A stretch of DNA of 63,407 bases, the filler included, from Stramenopiles sp. TOSAG23-6 (Eukaryota): NCBI GenBank assembly GCA_900128565.1. It is 12 parts of 12 records of this genome, joined end to end, with 100 filler letters (N's around TTAATTAATTAA, not from the genome) between each part and the next. Parts side by side here need not be neighbours in the genome. Positions count along the whole stretch, not along the records: positions 55,210 to 61,196 come from LT636797.1; 11 more parts are not named here. The stretch is one strand, 5' to 3'. Each line of letters starts with the position of its first letter. Position 1 is the stretch's first letter. The notes under the pieces are model-generated. The model worked only from the letters and a program-made list of their open reading frames with translations. It had not been told where the DNA came from and did not search any database. Both the position numbers and the translations under genes were made by a program. This document shows positions 36,016 through 63,407 of this stretch, in pieces.

Positions 36016-36206
36016 GTATGTTTTATATGAATTTCTAATTTAATTTTCTTTTTTTTGGTTTTTTTTCGTAAAAAAATTTCGTACCTAACAAAATTTTTTA
36101 AATTTTTTTTTGAAATATTTTTTCACAATAGTTTTTTTTTTTCATACGAAATTTCGTACCTAACAAATTTTTTTAGATTTTTTTTTGAAATATTAATTCA
36201 CAATAT

Positions 36207-36788: not shown

Positions 36789-36978
36789 NNNNNNNNNNNN
36801 NNNNNNNNNNNNNNNNNNNNNNNNNNNNNNNNTTAATTAATTAANNNNNNNNNNNNNNNNNNNNNNNNNNNNNNNNNNNNNNNNNNNNTATTTCAAAAAA
36901 AAAACTAAAATTTGTTAGGTACAAAATTTCGTACGAAAAAATATTCGATTTTTTGTTAAAAAAAAAAATAAAACATAC

Positions 36979-37578
36979 ATCATATTCACTATTTTCAGCA
37001 AGTTCTTGCATAATCATTGAAACTAACCATCGACCACATCGTAATGCACCTAATAATGATATTTCGGCGACATTATTCCACACCATACCAGTCTTCGCAT
37101 TACCTGTACGTTTGTGCGACTCTAACCATAAAGCTAAAGAGCCATTGGAATCAATTTTGCGTTTTGATTTCTTTTTTTTACCATAATAGTCAGCTAATTG
37201 ATCATATGAAGAAACCGAATCAAATTTGAACCATTTCTGCCAGGTTGTGAATGTTGTCAAGACAATAAAACCTTGTAACCAACCAGTGTCTTTACAACGA
37301 ACTAAATAGCCATTAATTGGATCATCAGTATTTAAGCGATCAGCAATGTAGTCTACACAAAGAGGTTTCTCAAAATGCATGGCTCTAGGTTGTCGACGTA
37401 ATTTACGACGACGTGATGCTTCCGTACAAAGCTCTAACATTTCCGGTATGCATGGGAAGCATTGCTGTCGCGAGGTCACTCGAAGAAGAACTGAATTCTC
37501 CAACTTCGCGGTGCAATCTGGAACTTTGTAGAAGTTGTAAATTGCTTCTTTATTTCGATAACTTTTGTTAATAGGCAT
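36979..37578 (-). CDS. GNAT-like acetyltransferase-domain protein, 3' partial
   Basis: LQGFIVLTTFT, AEISLLGALRCGRWLVSMIM; family donor at 36978. Confidence 0.5.
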
Positions 37579-37984
37579 TTTCAAAGTTTCGTTATATATA
37601 CATAATGGGTAAGGTCCCACTTATAAATGGAATCGTAACAACATCCCCATTTTCTATAATGCAAGGATAAATATTTGGAATATTTTTCTGCCTCGATAGA
37701 ATTTGCAACGACAATATTTTGGATACGATTCGCGGGAATTCGCGGGCTATAGATTCATATACAAATTTTCGTAGTTAAATTCTAATTTCTAATTTATTTG
37801 GATATGACAGTTTTGTCCCAGGATTTCGTGGGGGAGTTTTTGCTGAATTTTTAACAGTCCAATCTTTCTCTCTACTACGTAATAAAGATACTAAGTTTCT
37901 GAGATATCGTTGAATAAATAGATTANATCACACGCGATTACCTTAAGGTTGCGACTGTCAGATTGAATCAGTTGTGCGTGTAGA

Positions 37985-40900: not shown

Positions 40901-42900
40901 TTATGGAGAGAATCAATAGATGAAATGGAAAATAGAACAAAGAAATTACAAGCAAAGATTAGATGTATTCTCAATGATATTCTAGTGAGAACATTTGGTG
41001 GATGGAAACGATTTCGTATAGAAAGATTACGCGCAAGAGATATTACACGCAGGTATGTAACAAATTGGTGTCGATCACGACTTATAATTTCAATGGAAAA
41101 GTGGCTAAGTGTTGTACACCATACCCAAATTTTGGAAATGAATAAAGAAGAAAAGCGCAAAAACGCAATGCTACAGCATGTTTTTNCTAATCACTATAAA
41201 ATGAGATGCGAACGGTATACTTTACTACTTTGGCGCCGAGGTGCACGTACGCGTCGTGATAAAAGACGTGGGTTATTCATGATGGATTATACAATGACGA
41301 AACATTTGATTTCTCATAGTTTTCATTTCTGGCAGGCAAGCTGTGTTGGAAGAATTCGAACTGCACGTTTGTTCAAAGGATGTGTAAAAAGATGGAGATT
41401 AAGAATGATGCGTTTTGCATGGCATATTCTTGTAGATCATGCAATTAAGAAGAAATCTGTCCAATTTCATTGCAAGTTAATCATGAACCGCTGGAAAAGT
41501 AAGAACAAGGCAGCAGCAATGCGTAAATGGATACATTGTGCAAATACAGCATTGTATGCTGAACAATTAAAAACCAGACGGGAAGAAGTCACTCGGCGTT
41601 TGTTTCGTAATATGGTATACAGATGGAAGCATCAACATAAAACATCTGCAATTAATCAATGGAAAGCAGTTGTCAATAGTCAACGTCAGCGTGAGCGTGA
41701 AGCAGAACAAGTAAGAAGAAAATTCCAAGCCATGGCAATGCGTTGGAAACATCAATATAAAGCAACAGCAATGCGAAAATGGCATTTAGTAGTACAAGCA
41801 GAACATGATGAAGAACACAAAGCAGGTAAAACAAAACGAGCATTCCTTTCCATGTTGTGCCGATGGAAAAATCGCCATAAGGCTAGTGCAATTCGTCAAT
41901 GGAAAGGTTTCATTGATGATGTACATAATGCTGAGACACGCGCAGATACAATCAAGCGTACCTTTAGAAATATGGTTGGTCGTTGGAAACATAAACTCAA
42001 AGCTTGTGGTATACGCAAATGGATTGCATGTGTCGATGAAGAACGGAAATTAGAAAAGGAGCAAAAACACCATTCAGATAAAGTGCGTCATATAATGTCT
42101 AGTATGGCCATCCGATGGAAAAATCGTCACAAAATCGCTGCAATGCGTAAATGGACTGCAGTTAAATTACTAATGGAGAGAGCAACTCGGGTGATGCACT
42201 CTTTAATGTGTCGATGGAAACATCAACACGAAGCAGTAGGAATGAGGAAATGGATAATATTCATTAGAGATATTCACAAAGCAGAAGAGAAAAAAGCACG
42301 CGAAGAAGAACTTCGATTAGAGCATGCTAGTGCGACAAAGAGAACATTGCATTCTTTAGTATGTCGATGGAAACGTCGAAATGAAGCTAATGGTATGCGT
42401 GCGTGGAAGGAGAGTGTGAATGCACAGCAGAAAGAAGAAGAAGAAGCTGCTCGACATAAGGAAACTGCAAAACGTGTATTACATTCAATGATGTGTCGTT
42501 GGAAACATCAGCATGAAGCAAATGCAATGCGTGCGTGGAAGGAAGTTGTGAATGTACAGCGGAAAATAGAAGAAGAAATCGCCCGGCACAGGGAAACTGC
42601 CAAACGTGTATTGCATTCAATGATGTGCCGCTGGAGACATCAGCATGAAGCTAATGCTATGAGTTCATGGAAAGAACTTATAAATGTGTTGCGTTTAGAA
42701 GAACAACGCAGCGCAAATGAATTAAGTTTAGAAGAACAACGTAAAGCTTCAGCGAAACGTGTATTACATTCAATGATGTGCCGCTGGAGACACCAACATG
42801 AAGCGAATGCTATAAGTTTATGGAAAGAGCTTGTGAACGTGACGCGTTTAGAAGAACAACGTAAAGCTTCAGCGAAACGTGTATTACATTCAATGATGTG
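37985..42900 (+). CDS. Large Sfi1-like Trp-repeat helical protein (putative centrin-binding), 3' partial
   Basis: >1600-aa ORF with ~33-aa repeats R.......F..W; near-identical C-terminal repeats. Confidence 0.65.
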
Positions 42901-43059
42901 NNNNNNNNNNNNNNNNNNNNNNNNNNNNNNNNNNNNNNNNNNNNTTAATTAATTAANNNNNNNNNNNNNNNNNNNNNNNNNNNNNNNNNNNNNNNNNNNN
43001 GTTTTTTATAAAAATTTTGTACCTAACAAATTTCGAATTTAATTTTTTTTACAATGCAT

Positions 43060-43143
43060 GTAAGTCGATCCTTAGCTTCATTTCCAGATCATATTGAGTC
43101 GATTGAACTGCAAACTGCATTGAGTAAACTGTTTACACAATAA
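43060..43143 (+). CDS. Terminal exon of an unknown gene
   Basis: Follows family acceptor acaatgcat; open to TAA. Confidence 0.4.
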   Translation, partial: VSRSLASFPDHIESIELQTALSKLFTQ

Positions 43144-43503
43144 ATAAATAATACTTGATATATATATATATATAATTGTTTTAATTAACTTCTTACAAAA
43201 TGTAATGCTGATTTTTCTTTAGAAAACCCTAACCCTAGGAGTTTTTTTCTTTAGAACGGAAGAAAATACAGAAAATATAGCGGATATAAATTCTCTCTTG
43301 ATTCCGCCGGTAACGGTTAACCCAACATATCCTTAGTTAGGTACCATTGATACTATTTATACAGATACTCTATATTCTATAGCCTTGATCATGTAAAAAC
43401 ATTGTATTCGATTATACACGAAATATAACAACTCGACGAATCTGATTTGCATTTATATTTACATTTGGTACATAATTACGTACTCAAAAGTAGTATTGAA
43501 AAA

Positions 43504-45450
43504 ATGCCTATAACAAATGAAAAGGTCACTGATCTTGAAACAACTGGAACAAACCAAGAAAAACAGCACCAGACACGAAAACTATTTAAAGTTCCGCTCA
43601 TTAACAAAGTGGTGGATGTAGGTGGTGGTGCAAAACTTGGGTACTACTATACCACGATATTTCTTGGAAATCCACCTAGACGTTTTAGCGTAATATTAGA
43701 TACAGGTAGCTCCAAGACGGTGATTCCATGCGTAACGTGTACGGTTTGTTCAGGTCACGCTTTCAATCCTAACAAAAGTACAACTTCGAGCATAACAGAT
43801 GAAACCTTTAAGGATAATTATGAAGAGGGTTCTTCGTTGTATGGAAAGTTTATTACAGACCTCGCATGTATTGGAATAGCTACATCGTCGTGCGTTGGAA
43901 ATACCCTCCCTTTTATGTTTGGTTGTGCTGATTACATGTCTACAGCTTTTCAAAAACAAAAAGTTGATGGTATCATGGGACTAGGAAATGGAGAGTATAG
44001 CATTATAGAATCAATGAAGGTGCAACATCGAATTCAATCAGATACATTTAGTTTATGCTTCAACACAAATGGTGGTGTATTAACAGTAGGCGGTTATGAT
44101 GATACATTTCATTATAATAACAATTTTAGTAAAATAGTATGGACATCATTACTAACAGATTATTTAGGTAGACTAGGATCTAGATACACCGTTAATGTAG
44201 ACAATATTTCAATGAAAGCAACAGGAATGCAATCAAAACATCAACTTGATTCTAATCTTTTCAGTATAACTGCAATTTTAGATAGCGGTACATCAGATAG
44301 CTTTGTTCCTCGAGATATTTATATCTCATTTAGAAGAAACTTTGTTTTCCATTGTAGAGAGATGGCTGAGCACACAGAAAAACGATTAAACAATACTGAC
44401 CAATGTCTGAAAGAACCATGCGGATGTTCGGGGAAATATATAGATACTGATGGTGACAATATATGTCTTTACAAGCCAAACTCGGTACCATTAAATGAAT
44501 TTTTCAACTCTTTTCCAAATATTTACATTACGCTTAATGGAGGACGCTCTGTGCGTATGTTTTAGTTTTTTTTAAGTTTTGAATGTATTGGAGTTTTTCC
44601 CGAAACATGTTGTACCTAACAAAATGTACAAAAAACAGTATTTTTTCACAATGTATGAAGTCGCCATGGAGAACGTCCACGAAGCCAGGAGAAATCTTCT
44701 CTCTTTCGTATTGAAAATGACTTGTATTCCCTATGCATACCTCCATCACAATATTTCTTCAAAAGTTCTCATAATAATATTTGGTGCATTGGGATATTAC
44801 CTGATGATGCAAATAATGAATTCATACTAGGTGCAAATATAATGCAAAATTATGACGTCATTTTCAATCGAGAAGAGAGAAAAGTCGGATTTGTGAGATC
44901 TTATTGTACACAAAATACACAAAATACACAAAATACAAAAAATATAAATAGTTGTACTTTGCTTGAGATGACTTCTCAGGGTGATAAAGTTAATCAAAGT
45001 CCATCAATAATACAAGATGGCCATGTTAATTCTTCTCGAAGTAAGACAAATACTATGAATAACCCGAACCAAAAGGACATCTTTAACAAACAAAATGTAT
45101 ATGAAATTGCTACATTTAAAAAAAGAAATCCAGAGGGGTTTTATCAATCAATACTCGATGAAAGTAAACATAATATTTATGATGCAATCAAATATGGAAA
45201 ACGTGATCATTTTGAGTTATTTATATGCATGTGTATATTGTTTGGGATTATAATATGTATTGTTTTATATGGTTGTTATAAACAATGTTGTAAAATCATA
45301 CGATGTGGAAAGCAACAACATAACTATTCTAGAACATCAAATGTTGATATTGATGTAGTTCCTTTTGATATTGAATTGTCTAATTTGACTGTTGACAATG
45401 ATATTCAAAATGAAAATAAAATAGAAGAATTTGGACTAGATGATGGGTAA
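43504..45450 (+). CDS. A1 aspartic protease with C-terminal TM (plasmepsin V-like architecture); GT-AT intron 44555-44656; start uncertain
   Basis: ILDTGSS, ILDSGTS, DGIMGLG, ILGANIMQNYDVIF. Confidence 0.88.
44555..44656 (+). other. GT-AT family intron (register-defining)
   Basis: C|gtatgt..cacaatgtat|GA gives CGA; shifting by -1 or -2 creates in-frame TGA. Confidence 0.8.
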
Positions 45451-45824
45451 TATTTTAATAATGAAAATAAATGTTACAAATTTTTCCTACGAAAAACAAA
45501 AAAAAATGAACGACTTTTTACCAAATCTCAAGATAATAATTTATTTTAAAAAAAATAAAAGTCAAGTGAAATTTTCAAAAAAAATGAAATTGAAACAAAT
45601 GAAAGAGCAAAAAATATGATAATTTTTATATTTTGCTTTATTAACAACAGTTTTTTTTGTACGTTTTTTTCATTGTAAATTATAAAAATTAAAAAAAAAA
45701 ACCTAGAAAATAATCAAATCAATTTGCATTAATTTTTAAATTAAACTTCACTAGCAAAAAATCCTAGAAAATAATCAAATCAATCTGCATTAAAATTTAA
45801 ATTAAAAATTTAAATTAAACTTCA

Positions 45825-47916
45825 TTAGCTATTATCGCAACAATTGTTTTCAGGACAAGGCGTCTGATTTGGTGCACAGAATTGACCCGTCGCACAATGT
45901 ATTTGGCAATTATCTGGCGTTTGTGTTTTTCTTTTTTCGGCAAATGTTGCTGATAAATTATGAAAAAATATGTCACAAAAAAAAAATGTTAGGTATGAAA
46001 TTTCTAGAAAAAATATAATTTTGATACTCATATGATGAAAACGTACTATCTGGGTTAGAAGCACATGGTTGTTTTTGTGCCTCTGTACGAGATGTTTTAC
46101 CTTTAAATAACGAATGAAGATCGTCACAAAAAGTGTTCAAAGCAGAGCCAAAACAAACATTGTTGTTGTTATTAATAAAGGGTTTTACTAATTCTTCAAC
46201 TCCTTTTCCTCCATCACGTTCGTTTTGGAATTGTTGAAGATTGTCGGTAATTTTGAAAAAAAGGTTCGAACACTTGTTGAACTTACAATTTTGTGTGCTT
46301 GGTTTACAGTCACAAGTCACTTTATCTATGTCGTCTGGATAAAAACCACAGTCAATCTTTGCTGGATTGGCGCATCCAAAGTTGGAATCGTTTTTGTCAT
46401 GCCAATAACTGTTGTCTAACTTTGAACAGGGATTTTGTGAAAAATACATCTTCCATGTTTCTTGATTATCTGTGGTCAATTGTACTGCCATATTTAGATT
46501 TACACCATCAACAGCAGTGACGTCCGCTACCACATCCATTCCTCCTTCCACCATGATTGGGCTTGTCATAAAATTCAATGCTTTCAAGCCATTTATATCT
46601 GTATAATCGGAAAAGAGTTTATCGTTATTTCCCGTTATACCAAAAATTCGAGCAGCGTAAGTACCTGTTGTGGTCAAAAACACACGATTTCCTCCTGCAT
46701 TGACCGGAATTCTAACGACGAGGGTTTCACCTTTTGGTAAAAGATATTCATGAAATATATCGGATCCCATTGGATTGATTGCATGCTGTTTCCAATTAAA
46801 AACTTTGTTCTTCACGGTTTTAGATGGCGAAAGACCATCATCAATCTCCCACTTTTGATTTTCACTACCAGTTTGAAAGAAAACATGCAAATAATCACCA
46901 CAATAATTATTTACAATCTGTACCGTTTTCTCATTTTGTTTTTCCAGCTCCATAAACGCTCTATGATTTGGGTTATCAAGGTCACTAAAGACCAGCAACA
47001 TCTTGTACGGTGGTCTAAGATATGGAGAAGATCCTACATCGTTATAGTCATAACAATACGATGTGAAGTCAGCTTGTCCAGTAAAGACATCACTATTACC
47101 TACAATACCACATCCTCCCCCAGCATTACCTGATGTTACTGGTGCTGATCCACCACTTCCACCACCACCACCATTGCCACCTGTTGGTGCTGATGCTGGA
47201 CCTGATGGTGTTACTGGTGCTGATCCACCACTTCCACCACCACCACCATTGCCACCTGCTGGTGCTGATGATGGACCTGATGGTGTTACTGGTGCGGATC
47301 CACCACTTACACCACCACCACCTCCTGATCCACCACCTGCATCATCGCCACTACCACCACTTCCACCACCACCACCTCCTGCATCATCACCTGCATCATC
47401 GCCACTTCCACCACCACCACCCTCATCATCACTACCACCATCGCCACCAGCATCACCACTGGTATCATCACCACCGGTATCACCACCATTACTACCATCA
47501 TCACCAACAACTCCGCCATTCATTATTTCAGCCAAGTCGAGCTTAATCCTTTCTTTGAATTTACTTTCGTCTATGTCCGTTACAACCACCCAAGTAAATT
47601 TAACTGAACTAGCTGACGCTGTAATACCATCAACTCCGTTCACAACTTTGCCCCCTTCCTTTTCTACTGCAGCTACAATTTTTTTCCTTTCTTCCAAGTA
47701 GTCATTGTTTTGATCATATGTTCCATCTATCGTAAAACTCTCAGTGAAGGCAATACTTGAACTGTTTGAACGTACAAAGACCAGTGGAATTAAAATACCA
47801 AGAGATATTGCAACCACTAGAAAGACTACAAGTATATTTACTCTTGTCTTTGTCCAGAACACCGTCTTCTTATTTGTCTGTGAGTTCCCCCCCAGGAGTG
47901 GCGTTTGAGACGACAT
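45825..47916 (-). CDS. Type II membrane protein with Gly-rich linker and thaumatin-like domain; intron 45953-46046
   Basis: N-terminal TM, Gly/Ser repeats, VQIVNNYCG, DVTAVDGVNLNM, SYCYDYND. Confidence 0.55.
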
Positions 47917-48061
47917 TGGTATTTGCTTTTCTTTGCGTCGGGCGATGTCGTACGATAATAATATTAATGTTGGATTCAAAGTTAAGATATACGGTTTAAA
48001 AGTTTTCTTTTGGATACTGTACGTTTTTTTATTTTTGTAATTCTTTATTTTGGATGTTTTG

Positions 48062-48100
48062 TATTTCGTGTTTTGCTTTGTGAGCGCAAAACACGAAATA
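48062..48100. promoter_or_regulatory. 15-bp inverted repeat carrying CACGAAA in a divergent intergenic region
   Basis: TATTTCGTGTTTTGC-N9-GCAAAACACGAAATA. Confidence 0.55.
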
Positions 48101-48348
48101 TACCTGTGTGTTTGGCAGGTGATGTTTTACAAAAATCGTGTCAAAGTGAATGAATGGTTTATGACAGCAAAAGCATGAATAAAAAAATTATTGGCCAGCG
48201 TCTTTGGCTTGACCACTCTTTTTTTCTCTCTCTCTCTCTCTACGAGTCACAATATTTTGTTGTTTGATCATTTTTCAAGGATACAACTTGATATTTGGTA
48301 GTTAATTTGCATTCATTTATTGTTGTTGTATTATGTTAGAATAGGGCG

Positions 48349-49009
48349 ATGAATTTCTTCTTTAATTGTAGCGGACAATCAACGGCCACTACTTCAAATA
48401 CTCAAGACGCATCTCAAGAAAACGAAAATGTACCACCCAATGAAAATCGTGACGGCGTTTTACTGGTTGCTGCGCAAGAGTTAGCGATTGGTTCAATTTC
48501 TTTATCTGACTTTTTGCATTTGCACAGAAAACATAGTTTAATGTTGACAGATGGAATGGCACCGACGACATCGTATTCATTCACTTCTTTGGAATTACAC
48601 AGTGCGGCTGAAAAACTTGCAAAAAAGTCACTAAGTGTTGAAGAGTTTCTCAATCTCGTTAAACAGAAACAAAATAGTACATTTGAATCGAATATGTATA
48701 CACGTAATAGTGATATATCAAAATGTAATGGTACATCAAATACAAATACTACCAAAAAAGAAATGATTCAGACAAATGAAAACAATACCAACAATGAAAT
48801 AAATCATAAAAATCATAAAACTCATAAAAATCATAAAAATGAAAACAATACCAAAAAAACCAAAAATGAAATAAACCAGAAAAATAAATTAAATTCAGAG
48901 AATGAAATTGTTTCACTAACCCCTAACCCTAATGTTAATGAAAATGTTTCACCATCCAATGTTAATGACATTATCCTTGAAGTCTCAGCTATGAAATTTG
49001 CTAATGGTA
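48349..49009 (+). CDS. Hypothetical protein fragment
   Basis: Open frame to contig end; repeated AA..LA...S...F motif. Confidence 0.4.
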
Positions 49010-49109
49010 NNNNNNNNNNNNNNNNNNNNNNNNNNNNNNNNNNNNNNNNNNNNTTAATTAATTAANNNNNNNNNNNNNNNNNNNNNNNNNNNNNNNNNNN
49101 NNNNNNNNN

Positions 49110-49763
49110 CTCTTCAAATGGGTGCTCTAGTTTCAACTNTTCTGTTTCGACATGATCAGTAAAGAGTTTTTTCTTATCCTCCACTGACATTTTTTCCCAT
49201 TTCTCAGCTCTTTTTTTCTTGTTCAAGTATCTTTCAAATCCAGCAGCAAGTGCTTCATCACCAGGTACGTCAAGAGGTACATCACGAGCATTTATCATTC
49301 TTCTGAAAGCTGACAGCGACAGTTTGGACGTTTCTTCCTGGTTTGGGAGAAATTTCAAGACATGTAGCCAGGGTTTTGAAAGGTTCACACCTGAAGCTTT
49401 TCTAAAAATGTTGTCCAGAGCTAGCTTTGTCCAAGGAAATTTCCATGACTCAAGGCTTTTAGAAGCAATGTCTGTTACCATTGAATGATCAATCTTAAGT
49501 TCATCGGAATTTTTGGAATCTCCCAATAAGCCGCGTAAAAATGCCAAGCGCTTACGTGCCCTTAAAACAAGGACATCCCAGTTCTCGTCCTTAAATTGTT
49601 GCGCAAGGCTGTCCCATCTTGATTGAACCTGTTGTTCCACCCGAACAAGTTCCTCGGGCTCTGGTTCCAGGGGCTCTGGTTCCGGCATGCTGCTACGGAG
49701 GCTGTGCATTGCAGCAACTGATTCATGTAATGCAATCAAGCTTAATAGTGCTAACCACTTCAT
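49110..49763 (-). CDS. Secreted hypothetical protein, 3' partial
   Basis: Signal peptide MKWLALLSLIALHESVAA. Confidence 0.5.
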
Positions 49764-49887
49764 TATTCTTGAAATGTTTCGGAGTCCTTTTCTTTGAAGT
49801 TTCTATCGCCGTGAAGTTTACTAAAAAACTATAAAAAGAACTGACTGGTAGCAAAGTCGACGAGTATATTTATCTATTGCTTCCCAC

Positions 49888-51057
49888 ATGTCTTCGCTGA
49901 GTGAAAAAATGACAAATGACATCAGTCACTTATCATTGAAATCTCCTCAATCACTTCTAACGACAAGCCGTATTGAGACTTCAAATGTGTCAACTTCAAG
50001 TGTTTCAACATCAACCATTACTACATCTATACAAGAGCAGCGTAAGGCCAGGCGTATAGCAAAACGTAAAGCAAAACATGAGTTAAAGAAGACTATTTCT
50101 CCTACAAAAACGACTAAATTACGTATTTTAGCACTCCACGGAGGAATGCAAAATGCAGAGACTTTCAACAAACAAACAAAGAAACTTCAGAAGAAGTTGT
50201 GTAAAATAGCTACTTTTGACTTTATAGATGCTCCTTTTCTGACATTGAAGCCTGATTATGAAAAGCCTCGTTGTGTAAAGACAGGGCAGTATCAATATTC
50301 TACAGTACCACCATCCGATGAGAATATTCGTAGTTGGTGGGGTTGGAATTCAGAAAATCCGCAAGATTATCGATATGCCATTAATGGTCATGATCAAGAA
50401 GGATTAGTGTATGGTAATTTACAAACGTCTTTAGAATTTATTTGGACTCAGTGGACTAAAGAAGATAAAAAATACGATGGAATTCTTGGGTTTAGTCAAG
50501 GAGCTGTAGTTTCATCAATATTTTCTGATTGGGTTATACGTACAAAACCACAAAAATCAAAAAATATTCCACAATTTCTCATTCTAATCTCAGGATTTTT
50601 AAAACCTGTTCCAATAAATATACCCGAATATTGGATCGATAGAGATTCAATGTATAACAATATTGGGTACAATGGCAATGGTAATCAACTTATTACTGAC
50701 ATTAATGATTTTATTACAAAAAATAGTAAAAATAGTAAAAATAGTAAAAATGAGGCATTTATGATTCCTTCTCATCTAACTGATGTTTTCCAGCACTTTG
50801 AGCTAGACAATACGAAAGGATTGAATACTACAAAACAAAATATTAGTGCGATTAAAAGTTTACACATTTATGGTTTACATGATACGATTATGCCCAATTA
50901 TAGAACAATTTCATTAGCATCTAAATATACAAATGCTGTAGTGTTTGGTCATTGTTGTAAAAAAAAAGGTCACATTGTTCCACAAAATAGTGAAAGTATT
51001 CAGAAAATGAAAACATTTTTAGAATTGTTTTTAAAGGAAAATAATGTAAAAAAATAA
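49888..51057 (+). CDS. FSH1/OVCA2-family serine hydrolase
   Basis: ILALHGGMQN, FIDAP, DGILGFSQG, HIYG..D, GH. Confidence 0.85.
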   Translation: MSSLSEKMTNDISHLSLKSPQSLLTTSRIETSNVSTSSVSTSTITTSIQEQRKARRIAKRKAKHELKKTISPTKTTKLRILALHGGMQNAETFNKQTKKLQKKLCKIATFDFIDAPFLTLKPDYEKPRCVKTGQYQYSTVPPSDENIRSWWGWNSENPQDYRYAINGHDQEGLVYGNLQTSLEFIWTQWTKEDKKYDGILGFSQGAVVSSIFSDWVIRTKPQKSKNIPQFLILISGFLKPVPINIPEYWIDRDSMYNNIGYNGNGNQLITDINDFITKNSKNSKNSKNEAFMIPSHLTDVFQHFELDNTKGLNTTKQNISAIKSLHIYGLHDTIMPNYRTISLASKYTNAVVFGHCCKKKGHIVPQNSESIQKMKTFLELFLKENNVKK

Positions 51058-51365
51058 AAATCAAAAGAATTAATAGAAGAAATTGTGTCATTTTGCATTT
51101 TGCTATAAAAAGTGTATATTTCGTGTTTTAGGTAAGTATATTGAGTCACTCGAGTTATTACGCATACGAGATTGGTACAAAATTGACGTAGTAAAATTAT
51201 TTCGCATATTCCGCATATAAACACGCGCGCTCGAACGAGTAAAGCGCGTGAGTGCGCGTGAGTCTCTCTATTTACTGTTGGTCGAACTGTAAAAGCTACA
51301 CAACAAAATATACGCATGTACAAAGTGAAACAAAACACTTACATAATACATTGATAAAGAAGTAA

Positions 51366-54300
51366 ATGGAGAAAAGTAGTCATACGTTGTTGGGTTCAGT
51401 GACTGAGACACCATCGTATCACACTCTCAACGAAAGCGAACAAAACAAACAACACAGAAGTCAACAGGACGAAAGTTCTACTTCTCTGTCGTCGTTACAG
51501 TCGTCACACATAGATTCACTGTCTCCTAATGATATATTCCCATCATCCAACGTTTATAAAATTGAATCAGACAAAATTCATACTGTGTTTGATTCTACTA
51601 AATTTATTAACTTACAGGATACTTACCAAAAATCGAGAACAGAAACGTCGGCAGAGCGCCGCTTAAAAGCAGCTGCTGAAGAAAAAATTCTGCTCAAAGC
51701 GGCTAATGCAAAGTTAGCCAAAGCTCGTTTTTATGATGAGGAGTTTTTGATTCGTACAAAATTATTACAATTATATGTGAGTTTTCATCATCATTTTTCA
51801 AGTTTTTTTTTCGTACGAAATTTTGTACCTNACNAANTTNAANTTTTTTTTTACAATTTTTTCACAATACATGGAACACTACTACACAAAAAGTTGAATA
51901 TTGTACGAAATTATCGTAACAAATTTAATGGTGTAGTTGACTCTATTCGTCAAAAATCTCAAAATATTGTTTTGAATAAAACGAATAATAGTATTAGTAG
52001 TACAACTACTAGCGTACAACAAATGAATACAACTTATTCTATAGTAAAAGATATATTGGATGATATACTTTTACATGTCTTATACCCTAACCCTAATCCT
52101 ACTAATGTAAGCCCCAACCCTAATTACCCTGACCCTAACCCTACTAGTGAAAGCCCTAACCCTACTAGTACAAAAACAAAAAAAATACCGAATACAAATG
52201 TACCAAATTCTGTACCTAATCAAACGATTCATGATACATTACAAAAATGTAAGGAAAGTATTGACACGAAATGTGAAACAATTCAAAACAAGATTGAAAT
52301 ACAAAAAGTAAAACATATACAATTTCAACAACAATTAGCCACGTGGCAAAAAGAAATTGGACATTCAAGAGTTCCTGATGAATTAGATTGTCCTTCTGGT
52401 GGTACTTTTAAAATTTTTTTTTCATCAAGAATTTCAAAATATTTTTTTCGTACGAAAATTTGTACCTAACAAATTCTGAATTTTTTTTTTCCAGAAATAT
52501 TTTTTGACATCACATGTGTGCTCGATGATCCCGGTACCGTGCTTGTACGTAAAGTAAAAACAAAAACAGATGACAAACATAATAAATCTGGAAATGTTTT
52601 ATTGGAATATCAAGTTGGTCAGATTATGGTATCAAGTGATGCTCCAAATTTTAATGGAAGTGAGTTCAAAAAAACTTTGCTTGAGGAGCAACAAAAATTT
52701 CAATTATTAAAACAAAAACAAGAAGAAAAAAAAGAAGAAAAAAAAAGAAACAATGAAAAACGAAGAGAACAACAAAAACAACAAAAACAACAAAAACAAC
52801 AAAAACGACTACAACAATACCAACAATACCAACAACAAAAATACCAACAACAACAAAACCAACAACAACAAAACCAACAGAAATATAAAGCTGGATTTCA
52901 ACAGTTGAATACAAAAAATACAAAAAATACAAAAAATACAAAACATACAAAACATACAAAAAATACAAATATTTCTCATTTGATGAATGCGTATACTCTT
53001 CAGCTTAAACGTGAAATGTTACCACTAAAACATCGAAATGCTTTATTACGTGATAGAATTCTTCGTGAAGGATCAAAAATTATTCAGCAAAATTTACAAT
53101 ATAATCCATTATCTACTTTATCATTACCACAATACCAACAACAACAATACCTACAAAAACAATACCAACAACAATATCTACCATCTCAACAACAATTTCA
53201 AAAATACCAACAACAACAACAATTTCAAAAATACCAACAACAACAACAATTTCAACAATACCAACAACAACAACAATTTCAACAATACCAACAACAACAA
53301 CAACAACAATACCAACAACAACAGCAACAATCTAAATTTTTGAATACAGTAAATAATCCATTATTACAAAGTCAATCAATACCAAATAATCCATTATTAC
53401 AAAATCAATCAATACCAAATAATCCATTATTACAAAGTCAATCAATACCAAATAATCCATTATTACAAAGTCAATCAATACCAAATGATCCATTATTACA
53501 AAGTCAATCAATACCTCCATTAGTACAAACTTTCCTACCTAATTTTGTACCGTCAGAGAATACTCAAAGAATATCCTGTAATTCAAATTATTCAAATTCC
53601 AATTCAAATATGAATAATTTGAATCATTCAAATATGAATAATTCAAATTATAAATTGAATAATTCAAATTATTCGAATTTGAATAATTTGAATAAAATGA
53701 GTAGCCAAGAAGAAGCAAAATGGATGAGATTGTGGAAACTACAAAATTCTGTACCAAATTTTGTACCTAATTTATTTAGGCAAACAAACCTCAATCATTC
53801 AGATTTTTATTCTACATCGAATACAACAAATTATTCTATACAAAATTTTGTACCTAATCAAAATAATCAAAATAATCAAAATGTTGCATTACATCAAAAT
53901 TTTGTATCAACTAAAATGTCTCAATTAAATACAGAAAAAACGGAAAAAAACAACCTACAATCTCAACAAGAAGAAATGATAACTTCAACATATGTACAAA
54001 GTTTTGTACCTATTCAAAAAAATCAAAAAAATCAAAATAATCAAAAAAATCAAAAAAATCAAAATAATCAAAAAAATCAAAATAATCAAACCTTTGAAAA
54101 GGATGTAAAAAATTTGAAACGTAAACATGACAACATTCAAAATGTAAATTTGACAAAAGAGCAACAAGAAGTATACGACAATTTACCAAAAAAAAGAAAA
54201 ATTTGTTTTGCGAGAAATGTTTTAAAAGCAAAAGAATCAAATTCAGTTGATATTCAATTAAAACATCAACAATATCATTTACTACAACATCAACAAGATT

Positions 54301-54741
54301 TAAAATCAGCTGAAATGTTTTGTAAAATGGTTTTCGATAAAAAATCACCCACAAAACTTGAAATATTGAACCCTAACCCTAACCCTACCCTAATAAAAAT
54401 GAAATGTAATGTGAATAACAAAATAAGTGAAACGAAAAAAAAAGATGATGTGAAAATATGCGTTTACGTGGGATGTGAAAAAAAAAGTCAAGGTCGGACT
54501 CCCTTTTGTGTTTTACATGGCGGGGTTCGTTACACTAGAAACATTTTTTTATACATTTTTTTATACATTTTTTTTTTTACATTTTTTCAAAATTTCAATT
54601 TTTTTTTTTTTGCTGTATAAAAAATCTATACCCAACACAAAATATTTTTATACTATATTGTAGACAATACATGGTAAACGGTGTATTATTGAAGGATGTA
54701 CCAAATCAGCTCAGGGTAAAACAAGAAAATGTATTGCACAT
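51366..54741 (+). CDS. Gln/Asn-rich protein with C-terminal WRKY19-like C-x4-C..C..HGGG zinc fingers; introns 51777-51872, 52402-52515, 54525-54672; 3' partial
   Basis: CVYVGCEKKSQGRTPFCVLHGG|GKRCIIEGCTKSAQGKTRKCIAH. Confidence 0.7.
53353..53515 (+). repeat. 33-bp coding tandem repeat x5 (NNPLLQSQSIP), next to poly-Q tracts
   Basis: Direct inspection. Confidence 0.85.
54525..54672 (+). other. GT-AT intron (register-defining)
   Basis: GGG|gttcgt..gacaatacat|GGT restores HGGGKRC; the AT-AC register would give HGDGKRC. Confidence 0.85.
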
Positions 54742-55260
54742 GCATGTTTTATCTTTTTTTACAAAAAATCGAATTTATTTTTTCGTACGAAATTTTGTAC
54801 CTAACAAATTTTTTAGAATTTTTTTTTGAAATATTTTTCCAAAATACATAACAATAGGGCAAGGAACGAATGCAGAATTCGAATGCGTTCCAGAATGCAC
54901 TCAAAAAAGTGACTGCGATTTTGTTGGTTGTTCGACGTTTCCTGGGGAGAATGTGACAAATTATGATTGTGTAGAACAGAATGGGCAACAAGTATGCCGT
55001 AATGTATGTTGTATTTTTTTTTTTTTTTGTAATTTTTTTTTTTTTTTTTTATTTTTTTTTTTTTTTAAGAAAAAATAATACCAAAAAAAAACTTTAAAAA
55101 AAAAAAAAANNNNNNNNNNNNNNNNNNNNNNNNNNNNNNNNNNNNNNNNNNNNTTAATTAATTAANNNNNNNNNNNNNNNNNNNNNNNNNNNNNNNNNNN
55201 NNNNNNNNNTCGTACCTAACAAAAACAAAATCAAAAAAAAAATATTTTTTCACAATATAT

Positions 55261-57236
55261 GTACTACTTGGAATAATTATGTAAATGAGTTTATCAGAAA
55301 ACGCGAAGCAAATAGAAAATCATTAAAAGTAAATAGAAGGGGAAAGCAAAAAAATACCCTGAAAAAAGTTCTAGATTCGATCATTTCGAAAACAAATGCA
55401 TTATGGGCTTGTGACACACCCCCGACAGAGTGGGTACTAGACTCCAGGCAGTGGGATGCTATTGGTGCAAAACTTTCTAGACAAGGAAATCATTGTAAGG
55501 AACGGTGGTTTGAAATTATGAAAACTGGTTTGCAAGCTGCCATGGATGTTGTTTCGGGTGATATTAATGATAATAATGAAATGTCTAACTTAGCTATGAA
55601 GCTTTGGTTTGATGCGTGTGAAAGTTCACCTCCTAAATTTCCTACTAAAGCTTCTACTGGGAGAGAAAGAGCTGCCAACAATAGAGTCTTAATGCACTTT
55701 ATGGATGCAAAATCTGATATACAATCTGATGCGACTAATACAACTATTTTCATTGGAACACCTTCTGATGTAAGCTTACCACCATTATCAAAGCAACAAG
55801 TGATGACATCATTCATGCAACTTTGGTTTTCTAATCGAATAATACAGTCGCCTTTACCCAGGAAGCAATCAAAATCTAGTAAAACTGCGCATGCGAATAA
55901 ACGTGGATACATACTAAGTGATGGACTACAAAAATCTTTAGGTATAGTATATTCTATAGATTCGCTGAAATTTGCTAATAAATTTTCTTCGTTNTATTCN
56001 GTTGGTTCGAAACGAAAATATTGGCCGAAAGATGGTATAGTGAATCAAAGTGGATATATTACTGCAATGTTACCTATGCTTATCAAAGGCGATGCTAGCT
56101 TATTTATAGATGTCGCCACTCTCAATAAGGTTGATATTGATGCTGATGGTCATAATGATGAACTTATAGCGGAGAAAATGCTACTTAAATCATCTGATGT
56201 GGATACTGTAAGATCTGCTGATATTCCAAAAAGTTCAATATGGTTGGACACAACAGGTGAACGTTCTGGTTGGGGTGATTCATCCCTAGAGTCTTCCTTT
56301 TTTATTCCGGATGCTGATGNTGANGATGACGATGCAATTGTATTGAAATCAATGAGTGAAAATTTGAAAAGACAAATAACATCAAGTGGTCAGAACGGAA
56401 TTGATCTTCTTACATTGTTAGAAAAAAATCCAAATATGAGTAAGAAAAAAGTAAAAGCTGCCCTAAAAGACTTATTATTCAAAAAGACAATTGTTTGTGT
56501 TTCTGTGTATTCGTCTTTTAAATTTGTTGCTATGCGCAATTCCGACATTTGGGGAAGGTATTTTTCAATCAAATCTGATAGTAATAATAATCATAATAAT
56601 ATTAATAAACCCCGATCTGAATCAATTGAAATATTAGGTTCAAAATCTGCTGAAACTTTATTGAGTGAAAGAGAAACGGCAGCAAAAAATCAAGGACTTT
56701 TGGTAGAGATTCAAAGTCCATCACAGAATATAGTGAAAAGAAATTTAGAATCAAATGAAGTTCTTGAAAGTTCAGCATCTACTGGGTTATCTTCCGAGTC
56801 AAGCAATTCTTTATTTGCATCACAGGCTGAATCTAAACAGTGGTTTCAGTATAGCTGTTGGATTTCCCCCAAGGGTAATTGCAATGTATCTATTTTGGAG
56901 AAAGTGCGACAAAATATTTTATCAAAGTTGATTGAATTTCCTGGATTGAATGTAAAGCAGTTATCAAATAAGATATTTCCTGATATATGGGGTGTGTCTG
57001 ATATTTTTTGTGTAGTCTCACAACTAGAGAAGCACGGTTTGGTGAAGAGTTTTCGTGTAAAAACTGAGTTACCTCATATGACTCTTTTCGAGAATGTTGC
57101 AGGTGATGATTCCAATGTCAAATATCANTTATGTTACTTCGCCGATATAGAAGCTCTATCGAAATTACATGCAATTCGTACAAATCACTTGACAATGGTA
57201 GGAATGGATGATATATTTCGTTTTTATTTTTTATAA
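55261..57236 (+). CDS. C-terminal exon of a large protein with Myb-like and winged-helix-like segments (possibly TFIIIC subunit 1-like)
   Basis: WDAIGAKLSRQGNHCKERW; ILSKLIEFPGLNVKQL. Confidence 0.4.
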
Positions 57237-57299
57237 AAAAATACAGTTTGTTGTTGAGGAATAATTCATATTTTTATGTCAAAAATATTCCAATCTCAA

Positions 57300-58714
57300 T
57301 CAATCGATCAATATGCTACTCGAACTTGTACCTCGAAGAAATTCAGAACTTTCAACATTTGCTTTACTCGACGTGATGGTGACGTCTGCACACGAAGACC
57401 ACACCTGTGAAGATTCTTCACAATCCCAACGCCAACCAAGCACATATTTTCCAGGTTCCAAGTGAGCAGGAATATGTACTTTGTCCATCATCTCGACTTC
57501 ATCATTCCAATCGCCAGAACATTTACAAATTCCCTGAGTNCCGTTATGTGGATGATAGTGACTATTTTTACATTCTTCACTTTCGTCACAAACAGGATCG
57601 AAACTTGCTCCATATGTCGACCACTCATTGACATTTCTTGGAATGGGCATTTTTCGCCACATCGAGCCCTCAATATAATTTGTAGGATATGATAATTATA
57701 CAAAAATAAATATCCTCTNATTGTGTGAGTAGAGAACGAAAGTGTTATCTAAAAAAACATATTTAAAATAAATACAAAATACGGAACTGTACCAGTTTTG
57801 ANTTGCCATCCTCGTTCTACAGGATCAAAATAAAGTTGTTTACCGCCTTTCCCTCCCCATCGAAGGGAAGCTTTCCCAGTAAAATCCAAAGGTGTTTTTT
57901 GGAAACACTCTTCATTAAGTTCATTGCCAACTTTACAAAGTCGATAAGAATAACCACCACCGTGCCAAGCTTTCAGGGTCCATCCGACTTCGACATCACT
58001 CCCAGCTTGCCATACTGTTTCTGTCTCTAGAGGAGGTAATTGAGAACCCACATCTCCCACTTTTGCATATTTGGTTTCAAAATAATCAGCCCCAGCTGAA
58101 CCCTCGCCCTGGCCTTTCAATCGTCCACCTGCTGCACCGCAACTGTCAACGACTGGAGAAATTCCTGGATATCGCCAAGGCATGAAGAACCAAAAATCAT
58201 CCTCTGCTCCACACTCAGCGTTTGTGTTTAATGTTCGAAGTCGCTTGTCACAGATAGTTGCTTCCCGTTTAGGATACACCACTGTTGTAGGCCGAGCCTT
58301 CTGCCGATCAAATTTTTTCATCCAAGCAGGATCAGGTACAATACCTTCGCCGGTCCAGCTTGGTGGAACTTTATTTGGTCCTGTATATAAAAATTTTTCA
58401 TTACAACAAGGAATTTTTTGACCGGTGTTGCCATCACATTTTTCACAACCAATATCACAACCATTCGAAAACCAAAAACAAGATTGCCCAAGACTTCCAT
58501 CAATGTGCCGAGGATCTGTTGATTTNGCAGAAGGACTAGCGCACCAATTGGGGGTGTCGAATGGGATTGGATTAGGAATTTTTGAATTCCAAGGAAAGAG
58601 TGTTCCATCAATCGCATTCCGTGGTTTTGGTTGACTTAAGGAGCCGTGAGCACGTACCGTTAGAAATATTGGTAGCGTGAAAGATATAGTAAAACAGAAT
58701 GTCTTCCAAGACAT
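57300..58714 (-). CDS. Secreted lytic polysaccharide monooxygenase-like protein; GT-AT intron 57673-57782
   Basis: His directly after the signal peptide (VRA/HGSL..PRN), HGGGYSYRLC, PGKYVLGWRWDCE..QVWSSCADV; join restores GTVP|EGSMW. Confidence 0.75.
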
Positions 58715-59041
58715 TTTTTTAATGGTGATTTGTAGTGCGATGTTTTAACGAATAGCGGCAGTAGCTACCGGTAGATATAATGATACCTGATTTCAAAAGT
58801 AAGGGTATCTGATCTATCTTCTCCGCATTTGAAGTTTGAACGTGTTTTTTGCGGATGCTCCTCTATAGCCGTGTAGTTTCTCAGGACGTTTCTCGGCCGT
58901 TAATTACTAACTAGGGTTAGGGCGATGATAGTGACTGGCGCAGTCAGAAATTTCAAGAAATACAGTGTTGCCTCTCGTACATGAATATTGTGTTCTAATT
59001 TAATCATTTTATATTCTTTACAATCTACACTTTAGAATACA

Positions 59042-60131
59042 ATGCATGCTATTGCTCTATTTATTTTATTGGCAAATACTATTCCAGTATTTTTTGCTAT
59101 CCCGGTATTTGGAGACAATCGTGCATATATGCTTGGTCTCATGGCCAAGAAGAACAAGGGTGTTGCGGATGTCTCTTTCGAAGACTATGAAAAGTTCATT
59201 CTTGACCAACCCAGGCCGTATAACATTGTTGTACTTTTCTCATCAAAAGTAAATTGCTATTATTGTCCAGAGATGGCTGCTCAATTTTCTACTTTGGCTC
59301 AGAATTATTGGTCACAAAACCCAACACGAGATGATTTACACTTTGTGCAATTAACGTACAAATATGGCAAAAAACAAAAGAAAAAAAGAAATGATAATAA
59401 ACCTTTTGATGATTTCAAACTAAAATCGGTACCTCAATTAATGTATCTTGGTAGAGCAAAGGATAAGGATGATGTATTTAATGTACCAAAAGGAAATGTT
59501 TTCCCTCATCTGGAAGGAACTGCTGAACAAATGGCGACTTGGTTAAAACGGCGAGCAAAGATTGAAATTACAATTAAACGGTCTAATATGCTTGGTATAT
59601 TTATACTAACCACTATTCTTTGTCTAGTTGCATTCTTTGCAAAAAAAGCTCTTTCCCATTTGGATTCAATTTTACGAATAATTCGTCACAAAAAAATATG
59701 GCTATGGGGTTCACTAGCGGTGTATATGGCGTCGATTTCTGGTATTATATTTGATTTAATTCGAAACCCCCCTCCTTTTTATTGTACATCCAAAGGTTGT
59801 ATGTTTATTCATCCACAATCTCAACAACAATTTATAGGTGAAGGTTTGCTTATTGGCTCTTTATATATGGGTATGGCATATTGTGCAATTTTACTAAATA
59901 AGAGCGTGAAATATGTATGTTTTACTTTTTTTAAATTCGAATTTTTTTTCGTACGAAATTTTGTACCTAACGTTTTTTTTGAAATATTTTTCTACAATAC
60001 ATGGCCCTAATATGGATGATCACAGTTATACAATTATGACTTGTGCAGGTGGCTTTATTTTTGCATTTTCTATTATGTTGACTCTGTACAGAAGTAAGAA
60101 TCGGTGGTACCCTTTCCGATTACTATTTTGA
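59042..60131 (+). CDS. OST3: Oligosaccharyltransferase OST3/OST6 (MAGT1/TUSC3-like) subunit; GT-AT intron 59915-60002
   Basis: PRPYNIVVLF, CYYC thioredoxin-like motif, IRNPP, QQFIGE, YRSKNRWYPF. Confidence 0.88.
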
Positions 60132-60439
60132 AGGTATTGTGTTATAAAATCTAAATCTTACATGAGTATTTTTTTTAAATTTGTTTTTGTAAAATGTGAG
60201 CCAAAACACGAAAAATCGAATGATTTCGAAAATCGAATTTTGAAATGTCAAGTTGTCAACAACAACAACTCGAACTCAAAAGTTCAAAACAACATAAATA
60301 AACGCATCATCGATCAGATCTAATTATTAATTTGCTATAGAAATTAAATATTGGTTTTCTCTTCGAAACTAATAGGTGCAACAAACACATATTCTATGAG
60401 TAAGTATATTCCAATGTAAAAAAAGAAATAAAAAAGAAT

Positions 60440-61105
60440 ATGCATCGCCGTGCTTACCAACGTAAATCAGAAAATAGTTTTAGCTCAATCAGTGGTCAAA
60501 ATATTCAAGACGATGCAAATGAAATTACATTTGCGTACAATTATCGTGTCGCAATTTTTGCGTTACCAAGTTTCTTTGTCATAGTATTATTAAGTGGAAA
60601 TATGTTTTGTAGAGTATTTGGTTTGGGTGTAATTTTGGTGAATATCGCAAAATTAACTGGTCAAGTTGTGGGTGCACAGTGTCTCTTACTTTCCACTTTT
60701 CTGGTAACATCTACAATCTTGGTTATAAGTGTAGCACCTCTAATACATTATTCGTATTGGAATATTCTACCAATAGTTAGTTTAATTATACTCAATACTT
60801 TAAATATAACTTGGTTTGCACTTCAAAACCCTTGGTTATATAAAAACTTTCCATTCTGTTCGGTATTTTTAGAAAGGCTTATTTTTACAGTGCTCCCAGT
60901 ATCTGCTCCAATAGTGCTTACGTGGTTCATTTCTAAATTTGACATTCCCAATGTTGATTTAGTTCTCATGTTTCAGTTAGGAATGGGGATTTATATATAT
61001 TCTTCATCGTTAACTCTCTCTTCAATTTCTCTGAAAAAAAGAGAAAACCAAATAGAAAATAGAAATCAAATACAAATATACGAAACACAAAAATCGCAAC
61101 TACAT
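60440..61105 (+). CDS. Multi-pass membrane protein, NO EXINE FORMATION 1-like, 3' partial
   Basis: FAYNYRVAI..WFALQNPWL..FLERLIF..P resembles the NEF1 N-terminus. Confidence 0.6.
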
Positions 61106-61559
61106 GTATGTTTTTTTTCAATTGTTTTTCAATTTCGAATTTTTTTTTTCGTACGAAATTTCGTACCTAACAAATTTTACAAAAAAAAATATTTTTNNNN
61201 NNNNNNNNNNNNNNNNNNNNNNNNNNNNNNNNNNNNNNNNTTAATTAATTAANNNNNNNNNNNNNNNNNNNNNNNNNNNNNNNNNNNNNNNNNNNNAATT
61301 TCAAATGAATAATTATGCTATTAATTCAAAAACCTGCTTTGTTATAATAAATAGTACTATATAATAATTTTTAATAATCAAGAAAAAATAAAAAAATGCC
61401 ATTTTTAACCACCTAAAACACACAAAATCCCAGAATTTTCATACTCTTTTTTCTTCTTTTTTCTTTGTTTCATACTCAAGCTTTTTACATTTCAAATCTG
61501 CTTGCATTTGCTTCAATTGTAACTCAGCTTTTGCTAACTCAAGTTCATCAGAGGCAACC

Positions 61560-62298
61560 ATGCCTGCTGCTCGACATGGAGATGTGATATTGTTGGACTC
61601 TAAATCAATTGTAGAGTACATTAAAAAAACATGGTCACAAGAATCACTTACACCTGCAAGAGAATCTGGTGCTTCAGCATTGATCAACTGTGGATTAACA
61701 GATCATTTGTGGACAATACTTTCCAAGACTGGTAAAGAGCAGGACATTGGCAAAGCAGAATTCTTTCGCGAACTCGAGGAAATTGATGCATGTATATCAA
61801 ACAATAATCATAATTTGTTTGTAGAATCAAATAATGAGAATATTTCCAATATTTGGCTTGATGGTCGTGACTCACCATCATTAATTGATTTAGGTTTGAT
61901 GCCTAAACTAGCAACGGCGATAATTGCATCGAAACATTTAAGTGGAATAGATATTTTTGAAAGAGGTATGTTTCCAGCGGTCAATCTATATTATAATTCA
62001 TTTATGAAATCTGATGTTTGGATTTCAAGTACCTCAACTGGATTCGATGAAGAAGCTGTTGTAATATTTTGGGGAGATTATTTAGTTAAAACTGGAGTTA
62101 GAGATACCTACGCACTTCCAAAGAAGCAGACTACGAAGAGAACAACGAAATCCTCAGAAGATAATACAAAAGAAAAGAAATTCTGGGAAACTATCAGAAG
62201 TAGTGTCTTCAAAACTACACCAGGTAAAATAACAAAACGACGTACATGGAAGAGTAAATGGAAGACTCCCATCATTATTGGTCAAAATGTAAATACAG
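61560..62298 (+). CDS. GST-fold (DHAR/CLIC-like) protein fragment
   Basis: P....G..LLDSKSIVEYI; WLDG..PSLIDLGLMPKL. Confidence 0.55.
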
Positions 62299-62402
62299 GT
62301 ATNNNNNNNNNNNNNNNNNNNNNNNNNNNNNNNNNNNNNNNNNNNNTTAATTAATTAANNNNNNNNNNNNNNNNNNNNNNNNNNNNNNNNNNNNNNNNNN
62401 NN

Positions 62403-63407
62403 AATTGAACAAGTGTCGAAAGAGAGTTTAGATGAATCATTTTATAAAAAACGTGCAATGAAAAGGTGGATTCTATTATTTATAGTAGCGACTGGAACTG
62501 GTGCTTCTAGTGCTCTGATAACGATGGGGATTGATGTTTTGCGAAATATAAAGTTTGGAAACTGGACAAATGAACTTTTGCAGCAAGAATTGCGAGGTGA
62601 TACAAAAGAACTTACGCCTTCCGTATTTATTAAATTTAGTGCTTTTAATATCGTTTGTGCATTAATTGCAGTTTTGTTTGTAGTTTGGGCACCCGCTTCC
62701 GCTGGATCTGGTGTACCTGAAATTAAAGCTCTTCTAAATGGTGTAAAAGTCCCGAAAGCTGTACGCTTGCGTACGTTTTATTTTTTTTCAATGTTTTATC
62801 TAAAAAATATTTTGTACGAAATTTCATACGTAACAAATTTTACAAAAAAAAAATATGTTTTCACAGTATATGTACGTTAATTGCAAAAATGCTCGGCGTA
62901 ATTTTTTCCGTTTCTGGAGGATTACCTGTAGGTAAAGAAGGTCCTATGATCCATGCTGGTGCGGTCCTTGGTGCAGGAATTTCACAAGGCAAAACTGTTG
63001 CTCTTGGTTGTGATACTTCTTTTTCAATACTACGCGATTTTAGAAATGATAAAGAGAAAAGAGATTTTATAGCATGTGGAACCGCAGCTGGTGTTGCAGC
63101 TGCTTTTAATGCACCAATAGGAGGAATGTACGTTTTTTCATCAAAAAATATTTTTTTTTTTCATGGAAAGTTTTGTACCTAACAATTTTTTTTAGTAAAA
63201 AAACAAAAATATTTTTTCACAATATATGTTATTTGCCCTCGAAGAAGGTTCCAGTTGGTGGCATCCTAGCATGAATTGGCGATCTATTTTTTGTGCTATG
63301 ACAAGCTCTTTTACTTGTGTACAAATTTTGAAAGCAGTAAGTTTAGATAAAAATTCATTGATTAGTAGAAATCCAACTGATAATGTTGGTGGTGGTGATG
63401 GTTTTGG
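62403..63407 (+). CDS. CLC chloride channel/antiporter (CLC-7-like), internal fragment; GT-AT introns 62771-62871 and 63128-63227
   Basis: [31 protein letters not shown]. Confidence 0.93.

Follow-up and report, generated by a model that had tools for sequence, protein, structure and literature searches.

Introner elements, as described for Micromonas, Aureococcus and Chrysochromulina, are many similar short introns lodged in unrelated genes; in the accessible parts of the reports they bring their own 5' splice site, end in short inverted repeats flanked by a repeat of 2 nt, lack coding capacity and use an AG acceptor (PMC9860276, PMC11282704). The marine protist Amoebophrya has introners that recur as non-canonical introns and carry both direct and inverted repeats; according to the accessible part of the report, a hairpin of 8-20 nt joins the intron ends and the splice sites vary (PMC7789003). 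AT is the commonest 3' end of U2-type introns in Fritillaria borealis and F. pellucida (34% and 44%; accessible part of PMC13326754), and GT-AT ends occur among the minor introns of Physarum, which were proposed to descend from a DNA transposon having a 2-nt target (accessible part of 10.1101/2020.10.12.336362).

Here we analyse a window of 63,407 nucleotides, joined from 12 parts of the genome of Stramenopiles sp. TOSAG23-6, in which a 25-mer had been flagged as a conserved palindromic core directly upstream of a branch-like CTAAC. The family to which it belongs consists of introner-like, AG-less introns. AT ends at such a scale are, in the literature covered, otherwise described only for Fritillaria, and a literature search conducted largely outside subscription journals found nothing on this AT-ending intron family. 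The window is AT-rich, and its genes include OST3/OST6, a CTD phosphatase, a CLC channel, an RsmB/NOP2-type methyltransferase and Rpp40; among the named CTDSPL2 matches, Rozella and a sponge stand beside stramenopiles, so that these matches are not diagnostic of the lineage, and a search with OST3 gave a single match.

An apparent tandem of one palindromic 12-mer

The 25-mer TTTCGTACGAAATTTTGTACCTAAC is read directly from the window at 59947-59971 (+), and the window holds 35 matches to it at 3 or fewer mismatches, against 0 in 100 shuffles. It is made of a palindromic 12-mer (59947-59958), an altered copy of that 12-mer (59959-59970) and a C, positions 1-12 and 13-24 being identical at 10/12. 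The initial annotation had described two overlapping palindromes. The 12-mer is indeed perfect in the flagged copy, but the 16-mer is imperfect there, with a T at position 16, and the two are not independent features: both go back to one arrangement, in which the 12-mer TTTCGTACGAAA is repeated in tandem and its second unit has turned into TTTYGTACCTAA. Because a tandem of this palindromic 12-mer produces the second palindrome automatically, the 16-mer is no separate evidence. It is perfect in 3 of 39 N-free cores, one of them an inverted copy, and also in a metagenome copy, L001. The altered end of the second 12-mer unit is what creates CTAAC.

About 45 further cores or core remnants, distributed over 21..63227, lie within introns, and their orientation agrees with the donor or the acceptor wherever one is visible. 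A scan of metagenomes for the exact core returned one locus, L001, where positions 2474-2580 of a metagenome contig form a complete family intron with a perfect core, an AT preceding the donor and an AT end. Viral matches to a 17-mer (6 loci) had intron flanks in no case and were taken as chance. Decayed core-like 25-mers without element flanks are also found outside introns, in low-complexity ORFs, several of them reading NFVP (52196-52220, 53519-53555, 53747-53771, 53834-53858 and 53990-54014 on the plus strand; 27281-27305 and 16514-16538 on the minus strand). At 7 or fewer mismatches there are 14 core-like matches compared with 0.43 expected, some of them being both strands of one site; the non-intronic 25-mers may be remnants that became exonised, or else the 12-mer may have its genomic source in them.

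A family of introns with AT ends

The flagged 25-mer is the middle of an intron of about 90-110 nt that is repeated across many genes. Each core is flanked by a GTAYGT donor about 30-45 nt upstream and by a TTTTTYCAMAATACAT box downstream. Using a donor and acceptor scan independent of the core, together with a reading of doubtful regions, we delimited 30 complete introns; gap-cut copies, a truncated copy at 19137 and a copy near 6543 with an unclear end were left out, and core-less introns were possibly missed. At their 5' ends 28 of the 30 have GT, one GC and one AT. At their 3' ends 28 have AT, one TT and one AG. These ends were set by the box and the reading frame, and in 12/30 an in-frame AG lies no more than 30 nt from the assigned end. 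An exonic AT stands directly before the donor in 17/30 introns, the frequency of AT being 0.10. The nonamer GTACCTAAC is found within 2 mismatches in 26 introns, and three or four AT-ending introns have no good nonamer, so that the nonamer is not strictly required.

Over these 26 introns, mismatches per site amount to 0.236 at core positions 4-10, a value inflated by small indels forced into an ungapped alignment, and to 0.034 at positions 17-25, where conservation is inflated in turn, most rows having been collected by a motif search that filtered on the 3' end of the motif. The 5' box has 0.077 mismatches per site and the 3' box 0.10. The whole 25-mer is thus not the most conserved part, as had been claimed, since positions 4-10 do worse than either box. 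The flanks were said to vary freely, which holds for the T/A tracts but not for the GTAYGTTTT and TTTTTYCAMAATACAT boxes, common to the family. Similarly, position 16 does carry the commonest variant, T16, but the C/T change is not alone, G>A at position 5 being found in 16 of 42 readable cores. In 28 distinct rows the first TAC is altered in 29/84 cells and the second in 3/84, and the introns at 44555, 54525 and 63128 retain TACCYAAC though the palindrome is gone.

The family intron in an aspartyl protease gene (44555..44656, +) has 7 mismatches in positions 1-16 and an intact nonamer; its end was placed by frame only, with in-frame AG alternatives at -18 and +15. In a diverged member (54525..54672, +) the core is reduced to TACCCAAC, and the AT end, which has an alternative in-frame AG 9 nt before it, yields HGG|GKRC, in line with an HGGGKRC motif. 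The intron at 16653..16806 (+) contains, near its 5' end, an inverted perfect core (16672-16696) in addition to a decayed core in the normal place, which suggests a DNA-level inversion or a nested insertion. The copy at 19137-19191 (+) halts at GTACC and enters SPRY-domain coding sequence, without CTAAC and without the 3' box, and may represent an assembly collapse or a real deletion. The family intron at 13485-13576 (-) starts with ATACGT and would be AT...AT if its ends are right; its frame is open. The member at 12702-12863 (-) must end in AG, 90 nt past the nonamer, and judging by this intron AG acceptors seem to be still usable.

Two tandem cores, derived from internal duplication, are present in introns 13261-13427 (-), 36016-36208 (+) and 36586-36752 (+). 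Removal of 3731-3822 (-) at AT would make the stop codon of a bHLH ORF; an AG 2 nt later would join the next ORF. Placed by frame only, 10927-11064 and 31130-31265 (+) are AT-ending introns with the family end boxes and no recognisable core. Telomere-like AACCCT repeats lie just past the donor in three introns (12855, -; 31130-31150 and 36597, +) and are also seen in coding regions, where they read NPNPN (31411, 33552-33747, 54369). The 100-base spacers of the assembly (N runs around a 12-base stop linker, for example 6064-6163 and 61197-61296) are often inside or beside family introns; the repeat therefore breaks the assembly.

Removal of AT-ending introns

The flagged core lies in the OST3/OST6 gene, between exon 1 (59042..59914, +; PF04756, E 1.2e-44) and exon 2 (60003..60131, +), an open frame that reaches the stop codon and is covered by RNA contigs. 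The 88-nt intron between them (59915..60002, +; phase 0, GTATGT...CAATACAT) contains no AG, and once it is spliced out the OST3 frame is open to its stop. At 59913..59923 (+) an exonic AT precedes the 5' box GTATGTTTT, which provides a U2-type donor, GTATGT being yeast-like. The nonamer (59963..59971, +) is the probable branch box, with the predicted branch A at 59970, 32 nt before the intron end, and the 3' box GAAATATTTTTCTACAATACAT (59981..60002, +) ends in the AT acceptor.

The RNA runs that contain part of the window are marine, and four were compared over 56325-61196. RNA contigs of runs X2 and X5, from two studies (depth 3.4 and 4.3), omit the 88 nt (59912>60001). The position of this joint is ambiguous by a 3-nt slide, and an AG end results in none of the registers. 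One X5 contig (depth about 4, 191 nt on its short side) omits 110 nt with a slide of 0 (57672>57783), which corresponds to a GT...AT intron (57673..57782, -) with no palindromic core and no CTAAC, in which three internal AGs are unused. Removal in RNA is thus exact at two junctions, seen in three contigs at a depth of 3-4, and intron-less alleles could yield the same joined form. Neither joint is present in runs X1 and X3. In X1 the summed depth at the core is 43,846, compared with about 2.5 on unique stretches; this probably reflects DNA of many copies and is a measure neither of copy number nor of expression. Joints in X1 between 59972-60002 and 61125-61139 were rejected as repeat artefacts.

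Two introns of the CLC channel gene were placed by comparison with homologues, 150 proteins being examined. The first (62771..62871, +) bypasses an out-of-frame CAG 5 nt before its AT end, and the AT end restores the 11-residue spacing found in 86 of 101 matched homologues. The second (63128..63227, +) has a broken palindrome (stem P 0.0) and an intact nonamer, and its AT end restores a 2-residue spacer, as in all 107 of 107 matched homologues.

Proposed origin and spread of the family

The reading that we favour, with a probability of roughly 0.7, is that a short intron multiplied in the manner of an introner, that the 3' nonamer is a U2 branch site, that the palindrome is inherited with no hairpin needed, and that the cut falls after AT. 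In a founder, tandem duplication of one palindromic 12-mer would have produced the core, and the intron would then have multiplied through the genes of this protist like an introner. The nonamer would act as the branch site of the major (U2-type) spliceosome and be kept by selection, and the palindromic part before it would decay after insertion. Splicing would use the GTAYGT donor, the branch A, the U-rich tract and the CAMAATACAT end box, with cleavage after AT.

The copying of subfamilies fits, because variants of the core are linked to variants in other parts of the intron: three of six tests for such linkage gave p <0.05, uncorrected, G5 being accompanied by an upstream TCGA in 10/21 compared with 1/15, and C16 by ATATGAAT in 4/13 compared with 0/24. 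Among the core changes, 59 of 98 are CpG transitions, 46 of these at two subfamily-tracking sites, and the CpG observed/expected ratio of the window is 0.95, with no deficit; CpG decay might conceivably be a cause of the core variants. The inverted ends span 4 nt (GTAT/ATAC), or 6 nt with the flanking AT, the yardstick for introners being terminal inverted repeats of 6 nt or more. Together with the preference for AT these ends would fit a small DNA element; short terminal inverted repeats and target duplications are called ambiguous in the accessible part of PMC9860276. The upstream dinucleotide equals the intron end in 18/30 introns. In the remaining 12 the end is nevertheless AT in 11, which suggests that the terminal AT is carried or selected and not always duplicated. 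A search for look-alike windows in other genomes found none.

Compatible with the favoured reading is a proposal that gives the palindrome a role in DNA: the half-site TTTYRTAC, in two direct copies and one inverted copy, could be a signal of the spreading enzyme (a subterminal transposase site or a DNA hairpin) that is free to decay after insertion. Decay of this kind is what the model predicts, and it is in keeping with the short inverted ends, with the excess of AT before the donors, with one TT/TT case consistent with target duplication (36016-36208), with the perfect inverted core inside one intron and with the rarity of a 16-bp palindrome by chance, 0.3% of shuffles. The 16-mer follows from the tandem, however, and the apparent subfamilies have different palindrome-breaking variants. 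Moreover, the AT that persists after a differing upstream dinucleotide points to there often being no target copy, and the 29 window ORFs scanned gave no match to transposase families. We consider the DNA signal possible but doubtful.

A probable branch box and the choice of the acceptor

In 24 of the 26 introns with a recognisable nonamer, 31-46 nt separate the final A of CTAAC from the intron end (median 37; 64 and 90 nt in the remaining two). This agrees with the earlier description of CTAAC as branch-like and about 30-50 nt from the acceptor, a spacing longer than that of U12 introns (9-12 nt in Physarum minor introns; accessible part of 10.1101/2020.10.12.336362). With this spacing GTACCTAAC is a probable U2-type branch box. 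CTAAC fits yUnAy, and the human branch distance is 21-34 nt in 83% (accessible part of PMC2367711), the range in the AT introns being slightly longer. A U-rich tract lies downstream of the yUnAy-type motif, as in U2-type introns. The acceptor is not the AG of such introns, the single AG among 30 ends standing against 28 AT and one TT, and an AG at least 10 nt past the branch A is present before the placed end in 8/26 introns. An Rfam search of the window returned no match and no snRNA. The conserved box TACCTAAC is TACTAAC with one extra C, and the usual branch-pairing sequence of U2 is GUAGUA, with which TACCTAAC could pair if one C bulges.

A more far-reaching view, which we hold to be rather unlikely, is that one invading intron family has pressed the major spliceosome itself into replacing AG by AT as its default acceptor; the spliceosome would pass over AGs, use AT even where the core is absent, and read TACCTAAC via a co-evolved U2 snRNA or SF1.

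It is quite improbable that the introns are not recent copies at all, but old introns that converged on a strong splice signal, its primary sequence being recognised by an altered U2 snRNA, by SF1 or by a new small RNA. Such convergence would account for the TAC kept at positions 18-20, beyond CTAAC, and for a box that differs from TACTAAC by one C, and the minor-spliceosome snRNA of Physarum did co-evolve with its branch motif (accessible part of 10.1101/2020.10.12.336362). The similarity, however, spans the entire intron, in linked subfamilies; decay in the first half of the core is unconstrained, and there is no snRNA within the window. In a partial version, with an altered U2 or SF1 recognising the nonamer, the proposal is compatible with the favoured reading.

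The palindrome as a putative RNA hairpin

The initial annotation had put forward a stem-loop that presents the branch site and so allows an AG-free acceptor, and had named covariation as the check. In the flagged copy a possible 6-bp RNA stem with an AAUU loop (59951..59966, +) is predicted at P 0.97, and it is not kept across the family. We ran the check as direct pair counts over 44 cores, 28 of them distinct 25-mers; this set leaves out five cores with N and includes four diverged cores and L001. Neither stem rose above shuffles. For stem 5-10/15-20, 68.5% of cells are paired compared with 67.4% after shuffling, there is 1 both-side change compared with 1.0, and the covariation score was reached by 54 of 500 shuffles; for stem 1-4/9-12 the paired fraction is 83.9% in both, and the score was reached by 345 of 500. 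The stem is whole in 9 of the 30 introns and predicted at P >=0.5 in 7 and at <0.1 in 17. T16, present in 30/44 cores, does preserve a G-U pair, as had been claimed, but this costs 2.1 kcal/mol; A5 costs 3.2 kcal/mol and breaks the terminal pair, and both are found together in 10 cores.

An RNA stem-loop that presents CUAAC to SF1/BBP or to U2, and so makes an AG-less acceptor possible, is accordingly very hard to sustain, even in a weaker form as an optional enhancer in some copies. In its favour, a stem is predicted both for the flagged copy, at -4.4 kcal/mol (z -1.4), and for the perfect copy, at -6.5 kcal/mol (z -2.9), the commonest variant is still paired, and SF1 is described as preferring sites with a stem-loop before the branch motif, a stem-loop just upstream of UACUAAC being found in 9/48 motifs by SELEX with yeast BBP (accessible part of PMC2367711; yeast BBP work is also referenced in the accessible part of PMC4053964). 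Besides the lack of covariation and the cost of the G5A change, the destabilising changes G9A (3) and G17A (4) are as frequent as the tolerated C8T (2), and whole-intron folds are unremarkable, with z from -2.2 to +0.3 in 6/6. Moreover, AT introns without the core, or with the stem broken, are still removed or restore conserved proteins. The required form of the model is already contradicted; in some copies the stem may have an optional effect. The palindrome before the nonamer seems to be inherited baggage, and not a needed RNA hairpin.

That these are minor (U12-type) or AT-AC introns, to be read two bases leftward, is scarcely tenable: the 3-nt slide of the flagged junction permits AT..AC writing, but the delimited introns have no RTATCCTT donor and no TTCCTTRAC branch, their branch spacing is far from that of Physarum, the 57672>57783 junction is slide-free and GT...AT, and at 62771 a left-shifted reading is impossible, GT...AT giving R, as in 17 homologues (K in 35; 56 aligned).

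Comparison with known systems

The interest of the locus lies in the AT-ending intron system and not in the hairpin. A eukaryote that combines a GT donor, a normal branch box and near-uniform AT ends would be a natural test of 3' site choice, and of whether a mobile intron can reshape the 3' site rule; in such a genome, gene prediction that insists on AG will go wrong. The window contributes RNA support at the flagged intron and at the slide-free GT...AT junction without a core.

The box and its surroundings recall the yeast UACUAAC and BBP/SF1 site, in that a long box ending in CTAAC stands behind a possible stem; the box here is TACCTAAC, the stem is without visible selection and the acceptor is not YAG (compared with the accessible part of PMC2367711). 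With the minor introns of Physarum the family has in common the occurrence of GT-AT ends and a proposed link to DNA elements with a 2-nt target, but the U12 donor and branch motifs and the short branch spacing are absent here (accessible part of 10.1101/2020.10.12.336362). The Amoebophrya introners resemble it in that they too are repeated, non-canonical introns of a marine protist and contain repeats in direct as well as inverted orientation; in contrast to the hairpin that joins their ends, the palindrome here is internal and not conserved as a stem (accessible part of PMC7789003). Fritillaria offers the likeness of AT as the commonest 3' end, often with a YAY triplet before the donor and at the acceptor, but its main classes are AG/AC and AG/AT and its ends are varied, whereas here the donor is GT, the end nearly always AT and one family dominant (accessible part of PMC13326754). 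The introners of Micromonas, Aureococcus and Chrysochromulina share with the present family the similar short introns in unrelated genes, an own 5' site, no coding capacity and, at the two junctions given above, precise removal from mRNA; short inverted ends and a flanking repeat of 2 nt may be shared too. Where they use AG the present family uses AT; its terminal AT is often without an upstream AT, and its inverted ends are just 4-6 nt (accessible parts of PMC9860276 and PMC11282704).
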